A DNA stretch of 64,000 nucleotides, taken from positions 34,617 to 98,616 of IMG/VR virus record IMGVR_UViG_3300036981_000255; one strand, given 5' to 3'. Below the pieces are notes generated by a model. It did not search any database. It was not told where the DNA came from and worked only from the letters and a program-made list of their open reading frames with translations. Source of the stretch: a virus. The position numbers were made by a program, and so were the translations under genes. Shown here in pieces: positions 4,875-41,525 of this stretch (position 1 is the stretch's first letter; every line of letters begins with the position of its first letter).

Positions 4875-4996
4875 GACTTGGGGATGTCTTTAGACTAGAT
4901 AAAAAAACTGATGAAAGGTTAATAAAGTATTGTCATCGTTAATCAGTAACCATACAATATCGTTGAAAATCATATAAAAGTTCCATAAAAAAAACT

Positions 4997-5054
4997 TTAT
5001 CGCAACCGAGTTTACGAAGGTTTATCATAAACGAATTTATGAGGTTTAATTCCA
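4997..5054 (+). repeat. two tandem palindromic boxes upstream of tnpB (element left end or operator)
   Basis: TTTATCGCAACCGAGTTTACGAAGG then TTTATCATAAACGAATTTATGAGG; homologous to 3156-3234. Confidence 0.7.
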
Positions 5055-5056
5055 AC

Positions 5057-5064
5057 TATTTATA
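5057..5064 (+). promoter_or_regulatory. late promoter motif TATTTATA upstream of tnpB
   Basis: Exact motif ~33 nt before the TTG start. Confidence 0.55.
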
Positions 5065-5096
5065 GTTATATTATAACAAAAACAAAACACTATCAA

Positions 5097-6359
5097 TTGC
5101 TAAGAACATCCCGACATAGTATCAGTAACACAGCAAATCAAGGCAAACTCAATGTTTTGGGGCAATTCGTTAATGATTACAAACATGATGTTCAATTGTT
5201 TGTTAATAAGATTGTCAAAGGTGAATTTCCGTTACAAACACTATATTCTCCAAAGGGTGTTGAAGGTGCAATCTTAAAACACAGTAAATACAAACGTGAC
5301 ATTTACACAAAAGCAAGTCAAATAGTTAGAGGAGAAATAGCAGCAGCCGAGGAACGCAGATACCAAGCCTACAAGAAATTGTACAAGAAACTTATTAAGC
5401 TAAATATTCATACTGCATTCACTAATAAACGATATAGCGAACTGAACCTCAAACACATTTTCAAAACCGATTTTTTCACTATTCCAGAAATCAAAAATAT
5501 CACTATTGATTTGGCAAAAGATTTGGCTGACATTCAAGACGGCAAACACTTTGACAATTTTGTAAGAATCAAACTTCCATATTTCAATGAAAAAGGCACA
5601 CGAGCCTTACAAATCAAGTTACCAGTCAAAAATTACAAACATTCAAACAATTTTATCACTAAAGGTTACACAAGAAAAACGTCAATCCAACTAAAGAAAG
5701 TCAATAACAAATTCTTCATAAACTTCTTGTGGGAAAAAAACGAAATCAAAAAATCAAAACTATCTTTCAAACCCAAAGTAAAAGCCAAATCAAAAACAGA
5801 CGAACGCCCTAAACAAAGCGACATAATTCTATCCAAAACAGATAACTCAATGGGCATTGACTTAGGCTACAAAAAACTAATTGTAACGTCTAAAGGTCAA
5901 ATCTTAGGAACTGATATGATAAACATTTACAAGAAATTGGTGGCTTGTAAAAGTGGAACAGCAAAATATAAACGTTTAAAAAGAGAACGAGATAACAAAA
6001 TAAACTTCTATGTCAATCAAATTGACTTTGATGGTGTTGAAGTTTTGAAAATCGAAGACCTCAAAGACGTAAAAAAAGATTCAAAAGGTAAAAAATCAAA
6101 AAAGATAAATTCACTTCTCTCAAAATGGATTTATCCAAAAATTATAAGTAAAATAACGATGACATGTGAGGACAAAGGTATTTTGTTGGTAAAGGTTTTA
6201 CCAGCATATACATCACAAACATGTTCATCTTGTGGTGAAATACATAGAAAGAGCCGTAAAGGTGAACTTTACAAATGTGTTTCGTGTGGTTTTGAATTGG
6301 ATGCAGACTTAAATGCAGCAATCAATATCAATAACAGAGGGAGCTTGCAGTCCCCTTAA
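5097..6359 (+). CDS. tnpB: TnpB-family RNA-guided endonuclease (IS200/IS605/IS607 type), apparently intact, no adjacent TnpA
   Basis: RuvC-I MGIDLG, RuvC-II LKIEDL, zinc ribbon TSQTCSSCG...YKCVSCG, RuvC-III DADLNAAINI. Confidence 0.93.
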   Translation: MLRTSRHSISNTANQGKLNVLGQFVNDYKHDVQLFVNKIVKGEFPLQTLYSPKGVEGAILKHSKYKRDIYTKASQIVRGEIAAAEERRYQAYKKLYKKLIKLNIHTAFTNKRYSELNLKHIFKTDFFTIPEIKNITIDLAKDLADIQDGKHFDNFVRIKLPYFNEKGTRALQIKLPVKNYKHSNNFITKGYTRKTSIQLKKVNNKFFINFLWEKNEIKKSKLSFKPKVKAKSKTDERPKQSDIILSKTDNSMGIDLGYKKLIVTSKGQILGTDMINIYKKLVACKSGTAKYKRLKRERDNKINFYVNQIDFDGVEVLKIEDLKDVKKDSKGKKSKKINSLLSKWIYPKIISKITMTCEDKGILLVKVLPAYTSQTCSSCGEIHRKSRKGELYKCVSCGFELDADLNAAININNRGSLQSP

Positions 6360-6448
6360 CCAAAAAACTGGATTTGTGTGAAAATGTGAAATCTTTAGGA
6401 TTCTATGTTTTTATATGGATTTGGTAACTCTTAGGCAGTATTGCAGTT
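6330..6448 (+). ncRNA. putative omega-RNA 3' region of tnpB: right end to ~6428, guide from ~6429
   Basis: Expected position overlapping and downstream of the tnpB 3' end; sharp switch at 6429 to tail-tube-homologous sequence. Boundaries are inferred. Confidence 0.55.
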
Positions 6449-6500: not shown

Positions 6501-6860
6501 CATCTACCTTAAAAAAAGAAGAAGGGCGTTTCATTGTAATTTATACAGAACAAGACTTATCAAGCAAATTATTAAAACAAAATATTGTCAAATTGTCTGG
6601 AACAGACATAACAAACAAAACACGTCATAAAACAAGTGAGAATCGTTCCAAAGAAACAAGGTTACATCGTTTTTGAAGTGGTCTATGAAGTCAAAGAAAT
6701 TCCAAAAAAGAAAGACAATAAACGTTACCTTTCAATAGACTTAGGCATCAACAATCTATCAACGTTATCAAAGCACAAATCATCAACGGTAAACCACTAA
6801 AATCAATAAACCAAATTTCCAATAAACAAGTATCAAAACTGAAATCAATTATCACAACGA
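6499..6860 (+). pseudogene. tnpB: frameshifted internal remnant of a second, different TnpB (IS1341-like)
   Basis: Fragments GRFIVIYTEQ..IVKLSGT, IKQVRIVPKKQGYIVFEVVYE, RYLSIDLGINNL (RuvC-I) and INGKPLKSINQ in shifting frames. Confidence 0.8.
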
Positions 6861-6871
6861 TAAATAAAAAA

Positions 6872-7363
6872 CTAGTAAAGTCTTAGGCAACGTTGTGGTT
6901 GTATAGTAAATGAAATTTCACGGACTTTTGCATCACCATAACTAAATTCACCAAAATCTAATTCACCTGTTACAATGGCATTTTCAATCAACCATTTAGA
7001 TACTGCTACACCAGTTGGGTCTAATAGTTCAAGTTCAAGATTTTTTGCGCATCCTATATTGTATCCCATACGACCTGTGGCAGATTCAGCGTGAAGACGT
7101 ACCCACTCCATCAATGCTTCACCTTGAGAGGGTGCAACAAAATCTCTAACTTTTATTGCCATTTCTTTCCACTCATACGAGCCATTCACGTATGTTTTAG
7201 TATTTAAAAAAGCAATATCAATTTTTTGCAAGGACATTTTCGGTGAACCGCAAGATATTAATGACCATGTTTGAATACCAACATCTGATGGAAAACGTAA
7301 AATCCAACGATTTGTTAGCATAATTTCATATTGCAAAGGACTTTTTAATAGTAAATCCGCCAT
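6872..7363 (-). CDS. tail tube protein (T4 gp19-like)
   Basis: NRWILRFP, W..MAIKVRD, LMEWVR..AES.TGRMGY, LLDPTG; downstream of the sheath. Confidence 0.88.
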   Translation of the reverse strand: MADLLLKSPLQYEIMLTNRWILRFPSDVGIQTWSLISCGSPKMSLQKIDIAFLNTKTYVNGSYEWKEMAIKVRDFVAPSQGEALMEWVRLHAESATGRMGYNIGCAKNLELELLDPTGVAVSKWLIENAIVTGELDFGEFSYGDAKVREISFTIQPQRCLRLY

Positions 7364-35240: not shown

Positions 35241-35955
35241 GTTTCCAGCCTTTTTTTATATAAATATTACACAAACTATTTCTAATCTCATAATGGTTAG
35301 AAGTGTGTAAATGTGTGGCGTTTACATCATTTCCCCACTTTACTGCAAATTCAGTATTATTACCCCAAACTTCTTTATTAGTTGGTGGATGTGGTGGCAC
35401 GAATGTATTTATGTTTCCATACTTTTGACATAGATATGAAAATTGAATATCTTCTCCATTATCCCAAGATTGTGGTTCTTCCATCCACATATATTTTAAC
35501 CACTCTTTCTTAAAAAACCAAGCATGACCAACTAAATCAACTCTAACTGGCTCAACATTATTGTTAGCTGTCCAACCGAATTTTTGATTTGGTGAATAAT
35601 TGTTATTAATCAATTTAACACCTGATGCGCCAAGAATCCCATTTACTTTTTCAATTGTACTTAAACAATTTGAAAACCATTTTTTTTGTGGTAAACAATC
35701 ATCATCAAAAATTGCAATATATTTAGTTTTTGCTAAAAGACCTAATGCAAATCTGCCGTGAAATTTAAAATTATGTGAACAATTAATAACTTTAATTGTT
35801 GGGTCAGTGATAACTAGTTTAGGTTTAGTACCCATGTTATACCATATCCAAATTTCTTCTGGTGGATTTGTCTGTTCTTTCAAACACTTAATTTGCATTA
35901 ATAATGTTTCAGGTCTATTATAAGCCGTTAGAATTGCAGTGATACCGTTAGTCAT
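35221..35955 (-). CDS. GT-A glycosyltransferase
   Basis: ITAILTAYNRP, FDDD, VDLVGHAWF, GEDIQFSY. Confidence 0.85.
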   Translation of the reverse strand: MTNGITAILTAYNRPETLLMQIKCLKEQTNPPEEIWIWYNMGTKPKLVITDPTIKVINCSHNFKFHGRFALGLLAKTKYIAIFDDDCLPQKKWFSNCLSTIEKVNGILGASGVKLINNNYSPNQKFGWTANNNVEPVRVDLVGHAWFFKKEWLKYMWMEEPQSWDNGEDIQFSYLCQKYGNINTFVPPHPPTNKEVWGNNTEFAVKWGNDVNATHLHTSNHYEIRNSLCNIYIKKGWKLARDGK

Positions 35956-37616
35956 TTTTCAAAATTTTTAGTGATAATTTTATGTTTTTTTCTAATAGTT
36001 GGATTCATAATTGAAACATCACCTAAATGATTTACAAGTGATTTTTTAGGAATATAAACATGGTAACCCAAATTATTTATCAAATGTGACATTTGTCGCC
36101 AAACACCCGAAGATAGGTCTTGATTATTTGCCCACCTAGTCATTGAAATTTCATCAAGTTTAAATTTAATCGTATTTAAAAAATTTACAGGATATATTGC
36201 GCCACCATCAACCCAATGTTTTAAACCCCACCTAACTAAATTGGAGCTTGCATCTGTTTGAGCTTTGATTACAAAATTACCTTTATTTGAATCAATAATT
36301 TGTTGAATTTTTTTAAAAAAATCAGAGGTTAATTCAAAATCGTCATCCAATTGAATAAACCATTTAAATTGGTATTGTTTGACAATTGCCAATAAATTGT
36401 TTATTGTTTGCCAATATTTATGTTTTCCATTATTTTTAACATTTCTAATTAACGTTAAATCTGGACAAATTTCAGACAATTTTAAATATTCAGATACTTG
36501 TGGTGAAAAATCATCAATTACAATAATTTTTACAGAATATTGTTTTTTCTGTAAATTTAAAATAGATACTAAACTACTCACATCTTTAACTCTTGAATAT
36601 GATGGAATACCAACTATAAAATCGTAAGATGTACCCACATCATTATTACTATAAACTATACCAAACTCTTTAGACTGAATATATTGGTATGGTTTATTGT
36701 CAACAGCCTTAATGGGTTCAAACTTCTTCTGAAATGCCGTCAATATCTTTTGATTTTCACCAACACCGTTAGAATCTCTTGCAACTACTGGCGCAACATT
36801 CACAGAACCAGAACCAATAGACATATCATTCCTCAAACCAAGTCCTGCGCCACCGAGCATAATCAAAGGACGTTTTATATATCTTTTGTCTTTTGTTTTG
36901 TCCCAAACTTTTGATATGAAGCGATAATCGCCACATTTCCAGCCATCCCATTTGATTGTTTTGGCGATTCCACTATGAACAAGGATGCAAGGACTACCGA
37001 TTCTGCCGAGTCGTGGTTTGGCGTTCATTTCAGTTAGTGGTGGAAGAAGATTGCCAGTAGGATATTTCATTTGAAAAATCAAAAGGTCTGTGTTGCTTTT
37101 GATTTCATTGACCATAGACTGAATTGCATTGTTATCTATCAAGTAGTCATCATCATCAAGGATTAAAACCCAACCTTCGTTTATTTTTTCAATTAGAGTG
37201 TTGAAGTAAAGATTGTAAATGAAACGTTTGCCAGTATTGGGATTGGGAATATCTGGCATTTTTTCAACTTTTTCTTTGTCGATAAAAATATAGTCAGAGA
37301 AGCCGTCCAGTTCAACGTAAGATTTATCAGCCAAAGAATCTATTGACACAATATGTCTTATGTTTTGATAGATTTGTCCTTTGATTGAATCTCGACATCT
37401 TTTGAAACTATTAGGTCTGTTGCTTGTGCGAGTGATAATGTTTATCAAAGGCTCTTTTTCAGTTATTAAAATTGGACTTTGTACTAAATTCGTTTGATTT
37501 TGAATAACGACAGTCCTCTTTGCAACAACTGTTTTAGTTGGCATTTTAGGCGCAATCCTTTCGACTGATATACTTCTATTGTTTTGGCGTTCTGCTAATT
37601 TTTTGATGTGTTTCAT
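35952..37616 (-). CDS. double-domain GT-A glycosyltransferase
   Basis: NIITRTSNRP...LDDDD and VGIPSYSR...QLDDD domains. Confidence 0.8.
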   Translation of the reverse strand: MKHIKKLAERQNNRSISVERIAPKMPTKTVVAKRTVVIQNQTNLVQSPILITEKEPLINIITRTSNRPNSFKRCRDSIKGQIYQNIRHIVSIDSLADKSYVELDGFSDYIFIDKEKVEKMPDIPNPNTGKRFIYNLYFNTLIEKINEGWVLILDDDDYLIDNNAIQSMVNEIKSNTDLLIFQMKYPTGNLLPPLTEMNAKPRLGRIGSPCILVHSGIAKTIKWDGWKCGDYRFISKVWDKTKDKRYIKRPLIMLGGAGLGLRNDMSIGSGSVNVAPVVARDSNGVGENQKILTAFQKKFEPIKAVDNKPYQYIQSKEFGIVYSNNDVGTSYDFIVGIPSYSRVKDVSSLVSILNLQKKQYSVKIIVIDDFSPQVSEYLKLSEICPDLTLIRNVKNNGKHKYWQTINNLLAIVKQYQFKWFIQLDDDFELTSDFFKKIQQIIDSNKGNFVIKAQTDASSNLVRWGLKHWVDGGAIYPVNFLNTIKFKLDEISMTRWANNQDLSSGVWRQMSHLINNLGYHVYIPKKSLVNHLGDVSIMNPTIRKKHKIITKNFEK

Positions 37617-37626
37617 TTATTCGATT

Positions 37627-38046
37627 TTAATTGGAAATAGGTTCATTAAAAATAATGTTCCAACCATCTAAATTTTCCCAATCACCATTTAAAGTTAAAA
37701 CCTGTAAATCTTTCGATAATACAGGTTCAAATGAGATATATTCCACCCCTTTATTATTCCGTATTCTTGGAGATAGTGTAAAATTATTATTTTTTTTAAT
37801 TCTTAAAATAACGCTATTGTGTACTCCACCTTTAGAATTTGCGTAATATTTAGCATAATCTAAACTGTTTGTAAAAGAAATAGATGGCATTTTTTCACCA
37901 GTATTATTGGTTTTCATATATCCATCACGTTGAATACCTAATGTTGCGCCCTTGCTTGTTCCATGATAAAGATATACATCTTCAGACTCTTCAATAAACA
38001 TCTTTTGATATTGTTGTTCAGACAATAGGATTTTTTTCTTTTTCAT
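37627..38046 (-). CDS. leader-tagged ADP-ribosyltransferase-like protein
   Basis: MKKKKILLSEQQYQKMFIEE; YLYHGTS, I...G, ISFT.SLDYAKYYA, VILRI, EY. Confidence 0.65.
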   Translation of the reverse strand: MKKKKILLSEQQYQKMFIEESEDVYLYHGTSKGATLGIQRDGYMKTNNTGEKMPSISFTNSLDYAKYYANSKGGVHNSVILRIKKNNNFTLSPRIRNNKGVEYISFEPVLSKDLQVLTLNGDWENLDGWNIIFNEPISN

Positions 38047-39570
38047 TTATCCAATGTGGGTAATATATTTTCGCAAATGGGCAATATTTTTTTGAATATA
38101 GGGAACTAAAATGTTTAAAAAGTCACTTTGCTCATTTGCTTTCTTTTCTTCATTTTTAATTCGAGTTACTGATTCATAATGATAACAAACAGCTTGACCA
38201 ATATAAATATTCTTTAATCCGTGAGAAATACAATTGAAATTCAACAACACATCTTCAAAGCATTCAGTTACATTTTCATTGAATGCTCCCAAAAATTCAA
38301 AAGTCTCTTTTCCAATCATTAGAAATGCGCCTGTATTCCCAAGGGTGTCATATTGTTTGTCATAAGACGCTTTATAATAACTTCTTATGCCTATATGTGA
38401 AAGTCCTATGTGGTTTTGTTTGTTGTGAAAAAGTGCAATGCCACCATGTTGAATGGTGTTGTCTGCATAATGTAAACGACAACCAATTGTTCCAACGTGT
38501 TTTTCGTGTTTGTTGTAAGTTTGAATCATTAGAGAGATGGCATCATTTATCATAACCAAATCGTCATTAGCAAATAACAAAACTTCTGTGTCTGTATCAA
38601 TATAATCGAAGACCATTGAGTTATTGATTTTGGCGAAGTGATAGTATGGAAATCTGACGATGTTGATTTTATCATTGTGGATTCCATTAACAGATTTGCA
38701 CAAATCTTTGACTTGCTCAAATTTGTCTTCGGATGAACCAGTATCAGCTATGTAAATTTTGTAATTGGTGTATTTTGTTTTGAGAAGGGATTGGACACAA
38801 GTATCTAAATAGTCAAAATTGTCTTTTGTTGGAATTATAATAGCCAATTTAGGCTCTTTTGTGAGTTTGATTGGCGAATGGTCAGCAATAACGTTAGGAA
38901 CGATTTTTAAAGGCAAATATTGACCATAAAGGTTTTCAAACAATGCTTTATTTGTGTGCCATTGTTCATTTGGCATTCCAATTGAATCATGTTTCACGAT
39001 TATATCGGTTATTGTTCCGACCTTAACACCTTGCAGGTGGTTATTTACACATATTGGGAGGTCATAAAAGTGAAAACCTACAAATCGCTCGTCAAAGTTA
39101 GATTCGATACGTTTTTTGTGTAGCGCTATAAATAAGCCATCTATGACTAAAGAAGAAAGAATTTGATTTGAAAATCTTTGGCAATATTGAGACTCATGCC
39201 ATCTGTCAGTCTTTTGATTGTTGTGGTACACTGGGTGAAATACACGTCCAAGCATCTTATTAGAATCTGCCCACCATTTTCCGCTTGCGAGGTCTGTTGT
39301 GCCAGCAAGACCTAAAATTCCATAATCAGATTTTTCAAAATAGTCAACTATTTTTTTATCCCAACCCTTTTCAAGATAAACGTCATCATGAACACAAACC
39401 AAAATGTCATATTTTGATTGTTCTATTGCTTGATTATAGGCTTTTGCCAATGAAGTTGAACCATCATTGACAAATTCGATAACTTCAATGTCTTTGAGGA
39501 CACAACTCTTTTGAAGTCGTTTGCTGATGGATTTATTTGAAAATCTTGTGGAATAGAAGATAGAAATCAT
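38047..39570 (-). CDS. double-domain GT2 glycosyltransferase (start MISIFYSTR)
   Basis: VCVHDD, IDGLF, FHFYD; IIIPTKD, ANDD, GCRLHY, TGAFL, FEDV. Confidence 0.88.
   Translation of the reverse strand: MISIFYSTRFSNKSISKRLQKSCVLKDIEVIEFVNDGSTSLAKAYNQAIEQSKYDILVCVHDDVYLEKGWDKKIVDYFEKSDYGILGLAGTTDLASGKWWADSNKMLGRVFHPVYHNNQKTDRWHESQYCQRFSNQILSSLVIDGLFIALHKKRIESNFDERFVGFHFYDLPICVNNHLQGVKVGTITDIIVKHDSIGMPNEQWHTNKALFENLYGQYLPLKIVPNVIADHSPIKLTKEPKLAIIIPTKDNFDYLDTCVQSLLKTKYTNYKIYIADTGSSEDKFEQVKDLCKSVNGIHNDKINIVRFPYYHFAKINNSMVFDYIDTDTEVLLFANDDLVMINDAISLMIQTYNKHEKHVGTIGCRLHYADNTIQHGGIALFHNKQNHIGLSHIGIRSYYKASYDKQYDTLGNTGAFLMIGKETFEFLGAFNENVTECFEDVLLNFNCISHGLKNIYIGQAVCYHYESVTRIKNEEKKANEQSDFLNILVPYIQKNIAHLRKYITHIG
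39532..39536 (+). other. TAM/target-like pentanucleotide TTTAT directly 5' of the resident near-match to the orphan guide
   Basis: TTTAT|TTGAAAATC...; IS200/IS605 elements insert 3' of AT-rich tetra/pentanucleotides. Confidence 0.6.
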
Positions 39571-39612
39571 ATAACTATATTTTTTTTCAGTTTCAATATA
39601 TTTAATAATAGG

Positions 39613-39660
39613 AATATTTGCAATCAATATCAAAAACAAGATATATCTTTTGCAAATATT
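39613..39660. repeat. 11-bp inverted repeat upstream of the orphan omega-RNA
   Basis: AATATTTGCAA (39613-39623) / TTGCAAATATT (39650-39660). Confidence 0.6.
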
Positions 39661-39672
39661 AAACAAAAAACA

Positions 39673-39852
39673 GTCTGTTTATGGAACAGAATCGGACTCT
39701 AAACAAAAACAGGGTAAGGCGTTGCTAAAGTCTTCAGAAAAAGAGCAAAGAAAAATGCTTCGATTTGTCGCAAGCAAGTCTACGACCTCTGATGCTCATC
39801 TACATCAGCAATGGTGTGGGTGAGCAGTTCACTTGAATGTCTAGTGGAATAA
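39673..39852 (+). ncRNA. orphan TnpB omega-RNA (IS200/IS605 right end ending GTTCAC at 39832) plus guide; no TnpB ORF
   Basis: 15-bp stem TGCTCATCTACATCA-GCAA-TGGTGTGGGTGAGCA (39793-39826) with 3 G.U pairs and a GNRA loop, then GTTCAC; further hairpin TGCTTCGA-TTTG-TCGCAAGCA; 5' part resembles IS605-type tnpB 3' ends. Confidence 0.75.
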
Positions 39853-39866
39853 AAGATTGAAATCAT
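39833..39866 (-). pseudogene. 34-nt alternative 5' end of the adjacent glycosyltransferase gene
   Basis: Encodes MISIFYSTRHS versus resident MISIFYSTRFS; 29/34 nt identical to 39537-39570. Confidence 0.88.
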
Positions 39867-39914
39867 CTGTTTTTTACATTAATCTAATGATGATTTGTTC
39901 TTTTTAAAATGAAA

Positions 39915-39964
39915 ATGTCGCCAAATTCAACGATAAATAAGAATATCGTTAAAAGTGGCGATAT
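39915..39964. terminator. long hairpin, probable terminator
   Basis: ATGTCGCCA..AACGATA / TATCGTT..TGGCGATAT. Confidence 0.55.
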
Positions 39965-40003
39965 GGGTTTGATAGGGTATAATTCAACTGCAATCAACAC
40001 ATA

Positions 40004-40450
40004 TTATACCTCATCGGGTTCAATTATCTGTGCGCAACCAGCAGACGATTGCATCTTCTTTTGAAATCTTCTTACAGTTTCTTGGCGTTGTTCGATAAAA
40101 TCCCAACTAGATTGGACAAGTTCGATAATTTCTTCACATTTTTTATGTTGTCTATGTGTGAACATCAATTTTAAAAGTTTTTCATCATTATTATCATATT
40201 CAATATTTAACTTGTTTTGATTAATTACTTCTAATTCAGCTAAACATAACTTACGACAATCCGTTAAAACTTGAGACACAACTTTCTGCTCATCAGATTT
40301 CAAACTTTCAATAGACTTTTTAATTTCAATTGCATCAGAGAAAATGTCTATGGATTTTTCGATTGTTCTTTCGATTCGTTTTAGAATGTTAATCACAATT
40401 GTTTGGTCAACATTTTCGAGTAATTCCTCTATGTTATTGTTTGTTTGCAT
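40004..40450 (-). CDS. hypothetical protein
   Basis: 148 aa, helical. Confidence 0.55.
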   Translation of the reverse strand: MQTNNNIEELLENVDQTIVINILKRIERTIEKSIDIFSDAIEIKKSIESLKSDEQKVVSQVLTDCRKLCLAELEVINQNKLNIEYDNNDEKLLKLMFTHRQHKKCEEIIELVQSSWDFIEQRQETVRRFQKKMQSSAGCAQIIEPDEV

Positions 40451-40643
40451 GTTCAGTTTGAATTAAATTGATGAAATGTTGTCCAAAGACTTTCACAAAC
40501 TCTTCAAATGACATTGCAGCTAATTTCTTTTGATTTTCAAGTTTAGTCACACGTCTTTCGGTTTCGGCAATTTGTCTGGTGACTAATATCATTTGCCGTT
40601 GATATTGCAAATGAAGTTGTTCTATGATTTCTGTTTCAGTCAT
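40434..40643 (-). CDS. hypothetical protein
   Basis: 69 aa, overlapping junctions. Confidence 0.5.
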   Translation of the reverse strand: MTETEIIEQLHLQYQRQMILVTRQIAETERRVTKLENQKKLAAMSFEEFVKVFGQHFINLIQTEHANKQ

Positions 40644-40932
40644 TTGTTTGTTGTTTGATTTTAAAAATTGGAATAAACTCTTTTGATTTTAATTTACTAT
40701 TGATTGTCAATGGTAGTCCATTGAATGCGCCACCAATATTGATGAATTTTCCACCTAAATCACAAAAATCATAAGCCGAAATTTCCAACATCAACAAATC
40801 TGATTCTTCAATGTTTAAAAAATCTAAAAATTGTAACAAAGTTGAAGTTTTTTCACATCTTTCGTCAATGTTTTCTAACATTTTTTGAAATTGTTCAAAT
40901 TTATTTTCAACGTGTTGATTGATGTTTGTCAT
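40636..40932 (-). CDS. hypothetical protein
   Basis: 98 aa, overlapping junctions. Confidence 0.5.
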   Translation of the reverse strand: MTNINQHVENKFEQFQKMLENIDERCEKTSTLLQFLDFLNIEESDLLMLEISAYDFCDLGGKFINIGGAFNGLPLTINSKLKSKEFIPIFKIKQQTND

Positions 40933-41525
40933 AACGGTTTAAATTCACCTAATAAAATTCGTTGATAATTAATAGCATTTGTGTCTTCGTTGACCAACGA
41001 CCAATTGTCTTTTGAATATTCTGAATAGATTGTTACTTTTTCAACGTCTTCAAGATTGTGGAAAATGCTCTGCGGTAAATCATAAGTATTGAAAATCAAT
41101 TGTTTTGAGCTATCAAATAGATGAATTACATGTTCGTACAAATAGTCTGAAAAATCATCTTTGTCAACGATTATGAGGTCATATTGTTCGTCCAATGTTT
41201 CCAAAGGAATTTCATTATAATTCAGAACATAAACACCAGAAGACTTTTTAGATTTAGTGTACAAAAAATTTCCTTCTTGTACCAATTGACATTGAAAGTA
41301 AGTGTATGCTTTCTGTATTTTAAAAAGCATGTCAATTTGCGACTTTCTACAATCGGTTAAAACCACTATTGAAAAGTCATTATTGAAAAACATCTTAAAT
41401 GCTATCCAATTTGCCATCATTGTCGAAAACCCAACACCCTTCGGGCTTCCAACAATTGTGAATTTGTTGTCGATGATGTGGTCGTAGAGGTCTAAGATGG
41501 ATATATTTACTATTTGTTCGTCCAT
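40929..41525 (-). CDS. degenerate, truncated terminase-large-subunit ATPase-like protein
   Basis: NKFTIVGSPKGVGFSTMMANWI..KMFFN....IVVL resembles the gp17 Walker A region; YDLIIVDK at Walker B (DE to DK). Confidence 0.55.
   Translation of the reverse strand: MDEQIVNISILDLYDHIIDNKFTIVGSPKGVGFSTMMANWIAFKMFFNNDFSIVVLTDCRKSQIDMLFKIQKAYTYFQCQLVQEGNFLYTKSKKSSGVYVLNYNEIPLETLDEQYDLIIVDKDDFSDYLYEHVIHLFDSSKQLIFNTYDLPQSIFHNLEDVEKVTIYSEYSKDNWSLVNEDTNAINYQRILLGEFKPL

Follow-up and report, generated by a model that had tools for sequence, protein, structure and literature searches.

A probable right-end relic of an ISGst2-like IS200/IS605 element beside a doubled glycosyltransferase gene start in a jumbo phage

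The window analyzed here, a 64,000-nt stretch of a 98.6-kb jumbo-phage record, contains a glycosyltransferase (GT) gene on its − strand (Table 1). This gene has about 1900 homologs, the nearest of which (the protein P0004) is 88% identical and has the same first 23 residues, Phe10 included. MIS(I/V)(F/Y)YST was found at or near the start in all nine of the nearest homologs retrieved. The conserved family start, MISIFYSTR, is encoded by the resident gene and also by a 34-nt stub lying upstream of it; these are the only two MISIFYST starts in the 98.6-kb record. Between them lie the leader of the GT gene and a structured segment on the + strand.

Table 1. Features of the GT locus (positions in the window)
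Feature	Position	Strand	Remarks
Resident GT gene encoding 507 aa with two GT2-type domains; product begins MISIFYSTRFS	38047..39570	−	Pfam PF13712, PF00535, PF13641
TAM-type motif TTTAT	39532..39536	+	Gene codons Asn12-Lys13; there by homology
Resident 34-nt copy (codons 1–11 plus 1 nt)	39537..39570	−	Near-match to the would-be guide
GT leader with sigma-70-like promoter TTGATA-17-TATTAT (39633 to 39605)	39571..39672	−	10/12 matches
Frame open for 83 codons through the scaffold, possibly a tnpB tail	39575..39823	+	Stop codon (TGA) falls within the terminal hairpin, 9 nt short of the right end
Candidate omega-RNA scaffold/right end, G+C-richer	39673..39832	+	Folds; hairpins 39672–39698 (small), 39710–39792 (long, irregular) and 39793–39826 (terminal)
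Terminal hairpin, 15 bp, three U.G pairs, GCAA loop	39793..39826	+	39793–39807 pairs with 39812–39826
TTCAC, matching the ISGst2 right-end motif (TEM)	39828..39832	+	Last five bases before the repeat
Putative older-allele GT stub (ATG..., MISIFYSTRHS)	39833..39866	+/−	Would-be guide on +; 28-codon ORF on −, running into the putative relic
Upstream context of the stub, with terminator-like hairpin 39919–39960 and about 50 nt before the old ATG	39867..40003	−	Read from the letters

The stub and the first 34 nt of the GT gene are identical at 29 of 34 positions. In 200 shuffles of 39200–40200, the top 34-mer pair averaged 22.0 identities (sd 0.8) and never exceeded 24, and no further near-match to the stub was present elsewhere in the window. 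Read on the − strand, three of the five differences are synonymous (TCT/TCA, TTC/TTT and ACA/ACT), and the other two fall in a single codon (TTT/CAT), giving Phe or His at residue 10. Because this divergence is of the coding type, with three synonymous changes and two changes in the family's one variable codon, the stub is, as judged from its sequence, another GT allele and not a decaying local duplicate. Read on the + strand as a would-be guide, the stub differs from the resident copy at guide positions 6, 7, 11, 20 and 26.

TTTAT directly precedes the resident copy and TTCAC directly precedes the upstream copy, and it is exactly behind these motifs that the two gene starts become homologous. 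The terminal hairpin of the structured segment ends 1 nt before TTCAC, the intervening base being G, and its three U.G pairs are valid on the + strand only. On this strand, the segment folded far better than shuffled sequences (z −3.98 for 39660–39870 and z −5.53 for 39613–39852), whereas the − strand did not (z −1.09). The two motifs, the structure and the 83-codon open frame all lie on the + strand. The G+C content of the segment is 0.40–0.45, compared with 0.32 for the window. A hairpin of at least 10 bp within 5 nt of TTCAC was unique to this site when both strands of the 98.6-kb record were scanned. The doubled GT start, the motifs, the hairpin and the absence of a tnpB ORF, all described in the original prediction, are therefore confirmed as a real observation: both the fold and the letters agree with a 15-bp stem with three G.U pairs and a GCAA loop followed by GTTCAC, and the 29/34 repeat, the nature of its mismatches and the position of TTTAT are as described there.

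No tnpB ORF was found at the locus, no Pfam match to TnpB or Y1 was obtained there, and the neighbouring proteins gave no TnpB-related Pfam match. The 83-codon frame reads AINIKNK at 39620–39640, and 39620–39638 are identical at 18 of 19 positions, in codon alignment, to the AAININN (RuvC-III) codons of a tnpB gene of the phage at 6318–6336 (E 0.01), weakly suggesting that the frame is possibly the 3′ tail of a lost tnpB. Its 82-aa product (P0124) had no protein homolog by word search, and a full HMMER search of 1.84 billion representatives returned a single protein, a spurious match of repetitive sequence. As the left edge of the segment, 39673 is a guess: since the frame is open for 83 codons, the real start may lie near 39613–39620, and the right part of the GT leader may already be element sequence. 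No left end with a similar hairpin was found, the only hairpin to the left (39613–39660) being unlike the terminal one, which argues for a relic and not a whole element.

Upstream of the stub, the hairpin at 39919–39960 is terminator-like and would serve the 148-aa gene at 40004–40450, but was not flagged by a simple terminator scan. The distance from this upstream gene to the GT ATG is 433 nt here versus only 53 nt in the nearest IMG/VR relative. Because gene content between a conserved 198-aa gene and the GT gene varies among relatives, this stretch is, on the basis of that comparison, a recombination-prone spot. The regions upstream of the old and resident GT starts had no homology in either orientation beyond that of shuffles. 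GT homologs in IMG/VR were at most 54% identical and lacked the 39673–39832 segment, and a degenerate GT-start pattern retrieved nine metagenomic loci, none of them close and none with a doubled start. A resemblance of the 35 nt before the resident ATG to the GT leaders in L053–L058 was rejected as AT-rich similarity overlapping their start codons.

We consider that the segment is probably what remains of the right end of an ISGst2-like IS200/IS605 element, which would have inserted behind codon 11 of an older allele of the GT gene. TTTAT and TTCAC are the exact published motif pair of ISGst2/TnpB2 from Geobacillus stearothermophilus, whose wild-type TAM (TTTAT) and TEM (TTCAC) differ only at positions 3 and 5 (bioRxiv 10.1101/2023.03.14.532601). 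This match is a stronger argument for an IS200/IS605-type right end than the GTTCAC signature invoked originally, and groups the lost element with TnpBs whose TAM was experimentally tested. The family assignment is inferred from geometry and from the pair of motifs. The homology break at these motifs supports the earlier proposal that the insertion point lies behind TTTAT, close to codon 12 in an allele of the GT gene.

The order of events at the GT locus, likewise inferred, would be as follows. An IS200/IS605 element of the ISGst2 end-type would have inserted on the + strand just 3′ of TTTAT, 34 nt into a GT gene read on the − strand. Elements of this family insert without target duplication. 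The right end, TTCAC, would consequently abut the first 34 nt of the gene, and the stub automatically becomes the "guide" of the omega-RNA. The left end and nearly all of tnpB would have been lost afterwards, and the left side is today taken up by an intact GT allele that has a leader of its own. This resident allele might have arrived by recombination with a related phage, rescuing the broken gene, or might have been present before the insertion, in which case the element would have entered a gene remnant from a previous exchange of alleles, where it did no harm. Taken as a relic, the segment is nothing unusual: fragments of IS200/IS605 elements are frequent, and the flank of any right end furnishes it with a "guide".

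Further sequences of the IS605 family occur in the phage. In the 98.6-kb record, tnpB is present as two intact genes and as one frameshifted relic (6505–6874), and no further OrfB, HTH or Y1 match was obtained; this is a large virulent-type phage with at least three kinds of such material. Both intact elements have ..AAAG on the left flank, a GGTAAC end and unrelated 3′ regions. One copy interrupts a 72-aa ORF; the other lies two codons before the stop of a stub of an old tail-tube allele, so that the tail-tube gene has the same stub-beside-right-end layout as the GT gene, there with an intact tnpB adjoining. At these two loci, a right end is thus followed by an other-allele stub of the neighbouring intact gene. 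No link between the frameshifted relic and a TTTAT site was established, and its relatives on Anoxybacillus and Pontibacillus plasmids differ in their tails and lack a TTCAC end. No type-1 TnpB relatives were found in IMG/VR.

BLAST found no relative of the scaffold in the phage record itself, INPHARED phages, PLSDB plasmids or 24 related jumbo-phage records; neither did exact 20–30-mers in IMG/VR or a wobble-tolerant 25-mer in JGI metagenomes identify a relative. Five 20-mer matches in GTDB genomes (Streptomyces, Rhodococcus, Pseudonocardiaceae and Cellvibrio) were judged to be chance. When a single-sequence covariance model was run on 19 loci and 25 phage records, the scaffold was its sole match. 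No relevant Rfam match was obtained at E values up to 10; this miss is uninformative as to an omega-RNA, because nine bona fide tnpB loci likewise gave no guide-RNA match.

An origin unrelated to transposons is fairly unlikely. The segment might be some other phage RNA, such as an antisense regulator of the GT start, whose + strand transcript would be complementary to the sequence around the GT start codon at 29 of 34 positions, or a plain recombination scar between GT alleles at a recombination-prone spot. No homolog ties the segment to any tnpB, and TTTAT and TTCAC could be there by coincidence. Alternatively, the repeat is readable as 39 nt with 32 identities, in which case TTCAC could be a diverged TTTAT, undoing the motif argument. 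However, deriving TTCAC from TTTAT needs two non-synonymous changes (Asn-Lys to Ser-Glu), whereas most of the other differences are synonymous, and the chance of finding the exact published TAM/TEM pair at the homology break is about 1e-4 by a rough estimate. A transposon is also favoured by the geometry, a hairpin followed by the motif, and by how abundant elements of the IS605 family are in the phage, and the empty Rfam search speaks against another phage RNA.

The original prediction regarded the segment as an orphan omega-RNA that could still direct a TnpB supplied in trans to cut relatives with the other allele, or a catalytically dead TnpB to repress that gene. As a working guide, the + strand transcript would load a TnpB or a nuclease-dead TldR from elsewhere in the phage or host. 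In co-infecting relatives, the complex would cut or repress any GT gene in which TTTAT adjoins the old allele, whereas mismatches at positions 6, 7 and 11 would spare the resident one; cutting and repair from this genome would then spread the resident allele together with the relic, as RNA-guided intronless homing. The perfect hairpin and the strongly strand-specific structure are in keeping with a functional RNA, and the frame that stays open through the scaffold suggests little decay. The idea also draws on the like layout of the tail-tube gene beside an intact tnpB, on precedents among ORF-less omega-RNA elements that need TnpB in trans and among phage TldR systems in which the phage's own gene copy escapes by TAM and seed changes, and on theoretical proposals of homing into co-infecting phages. 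That the recoded gene start escapes the guide stood in so far as the resident copy does differ at three TAM-proximal positions, but was overstated, as five differences in 34 are expected of diverged alleles. Similarly, the TAM at the resident site is present, but is there by homology, encoding Asn-Lys, and is therefore not independent evidence.

Working activity of this RNA was not borne out by the searches, and we regard it as unlikely. No scaffold relative was recovered, whether or not adjoining a tnpB, as described above. The 98.6-kb record contained no cognate TnpB, TnpA or dead TnpB, although 64% of the phage lies outside this record; the search for a cognate tnpB yielded only the two intact genes, whose elements have other end motifs. 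A sigma-70 scan detected no + strand sigma-70-like promoter at the segment. A target carrying TTTAT and the old GT allele, which the earlier prediction had suggested seeking, was absent from IMG/VR. Moreover, no gene-end stub followed the right end at any of seven TnpB loci in two related phages.

A broader hypothesis would extend this idea to the phage as a whole, namely that its TnpB/omega-RNA elements are RNA-guided homing or marker-exclusion drives, each with a rival-allele stub as guide and an immune replacement allele adjoining. The GT orphan would then be a usable trans guide or a drive fossil, and the tail-tube TnpB element a live example. We consider this decidedly unlikely; one review discusses such homing into co-infecting phages only in theory. 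If the two stubs were not accidents of tolerated insertion, they would be the first natural hint of TnpB biasing allele inheritance between co-infecting phages.

A non-disruptive composite element is very unlikely. Here the transposon, by using an outlying TTTAT, would have picked up a GT leader and the 34 nt at the start of that gene on its left side, and insertion of the unit 39537–39832 (later shortened inside) after TTTAT in another phage's GT gene would have supplied a replacement start without ever breaking the gene. The limits of the unit coincide exactly with TTTAT and TTCAC, the model requires no intermediate that is lethal or defective, and GstTnpA has been observed to use an alternative motif outside the native end, with possible capture of flanking sequence noted by the authors (bioRxiv 10.1101/2023.03.14.532601), but there is no second copy, no known donor and no left-end hairpin like the right-end one, and the 23 initial residues shared with P0004 make the start look native to the lineage, not imported. 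The segment was also rejected as a group I or group II intron or an IStron on the grounds of strand, size, end motif and the absence of Rfam matches.

Returning to the favoured right-end relic, we compared the locus with known systems. By published motifs and geometry, it resembles ISGst2 in having TTTAT as target motif and TTCAC at the right end, in a hairpin beside the right-end motif on the strand carrying both motifs, and in that the DNA beyond the right end, which originally lay behind the target's TAM, supplies the guide. Unlike ISGst2, which resides in the chromosome of a thermophilic member of the Bacillota, it lies in a jumbo phage of 32% G+C and has no left end, tnpB or tnpA. Palindrome-associated transposable elements (PATEs) have been described as IS200/IS605 derivatives without an ORF that carry an omega-RNA and need TnpB in trans. 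The GT locus likewise has no protein gene, retains a right end with a guide-RNA-like scaffold and would require TnpB in trans; by contrast, PATEs are multicopy and retain a left and a right end whose hairpins are alike, whereas a right end only, in a single copy, is found here.

In prophage TldR-gRNA loci, nuclease-dead TnpB proteins act as repressors, and the phage's own gene copy escapes by TAM and seed changes (bioRxiv 10.1101/2023.11.30.569447). The parallel is one of logic, one gene copy being targeted and the own copy spared via changes near the TAM, and related proteins use TAMs of the TTTAT/TTTAA type. In those systems, the guide adjoins tldR and targets promoters, whereas the GT locus has neither tldR nor tnpB alongside and its match falls within a coding region. 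Group A IStrons, which combine a group I intron with IS605, also insert after T-rich pentanucleotides, TTTAT among them. They have a TCAG end and a group I ribozyme and lie sense to the host gene, unlike the present segment, which has a TTCAC end, is antisense and matches no intron model. Finally, as in the intronless homing of T-even phages by SegF, SegG and Mob, a nuclease system at a conserved gene would discriminate between its own and foreign alleles on the basis of a few substitutions and carry the adjoining allele with it. SegF, SegG and Mob are free-standing, protein-guided and experimentally shown, whereas the nuclease is missing at the GT locus.

The structured segment analyzed here lies in a 433-nt gap separating two minus-strand genes, one of them encoding a glycosyltransferase (GT). 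The window, with a G+C of 32%, covers bases 34617-98616 of a 98.6-kb IMG/VR virus record. This record is 36% complete according to CheckV and related records reach up to 317-321 kb, indicating that it represents only part of a jumbo-phage genome. In the nearest IMG/VR relative the gap upstream of GT is 53 nt rather than 433 nt, and gene content between GT and a conserved gene of 198 aa varies across relatives, so that this spot is evidently recombination-prone. The resident GT allele has a leader of its own, in which a promoter scan placed a sigma-70-like promoter. Across 80 related loci, the neighbourhood is kept only by the 198-aa gene (40929-41525) and a 554-aa GT (35952-37616). Neither the gene of 139 aa that separates GT from the next GT gene (37627-38046) nor three small genes upstream of GT (40004-40932) had a counterpart there; the GT gene is thus flanked by two variable spots.

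Features of the GT locus and of other IS605-family elements (window positions unless stated)
Feature	Position	Strand	Remarks
GT gene	38047-39570	-	507 aa; two GT2-type domains
Resident copy of GT start	39537-39570	-	
Upstream copy (stub; would-be guide when read on the + strand)	39833-39866	-	
Open frame	39575-39823	+	83 codons; stop inside terminal hairpin, 9 nt before the right end
Gene without known family	40004-40450	-	148 aa
Intact tnpB element	4928-6428		..TAAAG left, GGTAAC right end, then TCTTAGG..; lying two codons short of the stop codon in a ~75-nt stub of an old tail-tube allele
Intact tnpB	5097-6359 (gene of the preceding element)		
Second intact tnpB	about 1290-2600 of the whole record		
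Frameshifted N-terminal relic	~6505-6874		different TnpB type; between tube stub and intact tube gene

The two copies of the GT start are identical at 29 of 34 positions, as originally predicted, whereas the best 34-mer pair in shuffles of the surrounding kilobase (n=200) averaged 22.0 and never exceeded 24. Both begin with ATG and encode MISIFYSTR. MIS(I/V)(F/Y)YST stands at or near the start in all nine of the nearest GT homologs retrieved, and the 98.6 kb contain only these two starts of the MISIFYST kind. The five differences are those first described: three are synonymous, and the remaining two both affect codon 10 (Phe/His), where the GT family is variable. Although five changes are only suggestive, they indicate that divergence of the upstream copy took place while it was still coding; it is best seen as a stub of another allele rather than as a decaying local duplicate. 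A minus-strand ORF of 28 codons (MISIFYSTRHSSELLTHTIADVDEHQRS, 39780-39866) begins at the old GT start and continues antisense into the segment; transcription from the old promoter would make it an upstream ORF preceding the resident gene.

Similarity between the copies ends at the ATG on one side, and the sequences ahead of the two start codons showed no likeness in either orientation. The other edge falls directly after TTTAT at the resident copy and after TTCAC at the upstream copy. In ISGst2 of Geobacillus stearothermophilus, the TAM of TnpB2 is TTTAT and the right-end motif is TTCAC, the two differing at positions 3 and 5 only (Meers et al., bioRxiv 10.1101/2023.03.14.532601). Both motifs are present here, each exactly at a homology break. 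Insertion of IS200/IS605 elements takes place on the 3' side of the TAM and causes no target duplication, and the base after the right end should therefore be the one following TTTAT in the target, as is seen in this sequence. The ends and tnpB are expected on one strand; the plus strand carries the TAM and end motif together with the hairpin, the RNA structure and the open frame. From motif and geometry, the segment is probably an ISGst2-like right-end relic of the IS200/IS605 family, inserted after TTTAT as had been proposed. Alternatively, the repeat may extend over 39 nt (32 of 39 identical), with TTCAC a diverged form of TTTAT, which represents homologous Asn-Lys codons in the resident gene; this is several-fold less likely, as both changes would be non-synonymous (Asn-Lys to Ser-Glu) when the other differences are mostly synonymous.

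Folding of 39660-39870 gave z = -3.98 on the plus strand and z = -1.09 on the minus strand, and 39613-39852 formed four plus-strand stem-loops (z = -5.53). The terminal stem has the predicted 15 bp, including three U.G pairs, and GCAA loop, with a single nucleotide separating it from TTCAC; on the opposite strand its U.G pairs become C.A mismatches. No other hairpin of at least 10 bp lies within 5 nt of TTCAC in the whole record. G+C is 40-45% in the segment versus 19-33% in the neighbourhood. An open run as long as the 83-codon frame has an estimated chance of ~1% at local base composition. At 39620-39640 this frame reads AINIKNK, and 39620-39638 matches, in codon register and at 18 of 19 positions, the phage tnpB at 6318-6336, where AAININN (RuvC-III) is encoded. 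This match is a weak hint that the relic may include the 3'-terminal ~68 codons of a tnpB and start near 39613-39620, rather than at 39673 as first placed. The open-frame peptide had no homolog in a word search and, among 1.84 billion representatives, matched only one spurious repetitive protein. A hairpin with perfect 11-bp arms (AATATTTGCAA / TTGCAAATATT) at 39613-39660 overlaps the predicted minus-strand GT promoter as well as the codons for AINIKNK; it may represent an operator, belong to the relic RNA or have arisen by chance.

The relic locus contains no left end and, as predicted, no tnpB; tnpA is likewise absent there, and neither gene of the right type was found in the 98.6-kb record. 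Scaffold relatives were found neither in the record, in 24 related phage records and in phage and plasmid collections, nor with a covariance model built from the segment; exact or wobble-tolerant scaffold words retrieved nothing similar from IMG/VR, JGI metagenomes or GTDB genomes. Rfam gave no match to the segment, and release 15, applied to phage loci L003 and L099-L119, detected no guide-RNA family at E <= 0.01 in nine genuine tnpB loci, indicating that Rfam is useless for confirming or rejecting omega-RNAs of these types. Both intact TnpB elements have an ..AAAG left flank, a GGTAAC end and 3' regions unlike the orphan's; judged by these features, their TnpBs are not cognate to it.

The original prediction further held that the segment could still act as an omega-RNA for a TnpB supplied in trans, with a recoded resident start that escapes the guide. 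The would-be guide mismatches the resident copy at positions 6, 7, 11 and 20, which would block cleavage, but any two alleles ~15% apart would show such mismatches. No old-allele target behind TTTAT was found in IMG/VR, and no further near-match to the guide in the window. With neither a cognate among the two intact TnpBs nor a scaffold relative, a functional orphan guide lacks support; such a guide, needing a transcript and a TTTAT-type TnpB, is unlikely. The wider idea that TnpB/omega-RNA elements of this phage act as RNA-guided homing or marker-exclusion drives is likewise unlikely, and TnpB homing into co-infecting phages is treated in a review as theoretical only.

In-silico excision of the 4928-6428 element restored an old tail-tube allele ending ...CLRLY-stop. 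The tail-tube stub aligns without gaps to the terminal part of the complete tube gene (6872-7363), 450 nt away, and the first 9 nt past the right end are identical in both. The second tnpB copy (L003 370-1798, about 1235-2663 of the whole record), 73% identical, splits a small minus-strand ORF, and its excision restored a 72-aa frame beginning MQKSKEWFLDRIG. These two reconstructions indicate that coding-sequence insertions occur in this genome. No comparable stub was present at seven TnpB loci of two related phages, and the stub pattern is therefore not general. The frameshifted relic contains ..VRIVPKKQGYIVFEVVYE..SIDLGINNLSTLS..INGKPLKSINQ.., with its best plasmid relatives in Anoxybacillus, Pontibacillus, Bacillus, Clostridium, Ligilactobacillus and Dolichospermum; its left junction could not be assigned a TTTAT. 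The related jumbo-phage records G002 and G014 (containing loci L007 and L038) each have four tnpB matches of several types, with right ends such as ..GAACGG. One G002 tnpB lies a few kb or less from the G002 GT gene, and two unlike tnpB genes of G002 are each followed by a paralogous gene starting MKVL(I/L)SE after a TATTTATA-like motif. In a related phage (L107, G014:C1:121101-124334), a tnpB has four tRNA genes no more than 1.5 kb away.

At the GT locus, the right end abuts the 34-nt stub left from one GT allele, and across from it stands a second, intact allele. The element may have broken the old GT allele, after which recombination with a relative, one of its junctions falling within the element, would have supplied a whole allele. 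Otherwise, an earlier allele swap may have left the stub of the old GT start, and the element would have landed at the stub's TTTAT, a site of a harmless kind that is scarce where genes are so densely packed, its left part being deleted later. It is unlikely that the element had captured the gene start on its left flank and never broke the GT gene: GstTnpA can use motifs outside its native ends (Meers et al., bioRxiv 10.1101/2023.03.14.532601), but the resident start, Phe10 included, is common to P0004, a GT relative 88% identical.

Among known systems, the relic would resemble the ends of ISGst2-type IS200/IS605 elements in its working, and its motifs place it among them. It does not match PATEs, as it has one end only and is single-copy; TldR loci, as it has no adjacent gene of that kind; or IStrons, from which it differs in end motif and strand and in having no ribozyme. 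The guide reading is similar in its self-versus-other logic to TldR prophage loci and to intronless homing in T-even phages.
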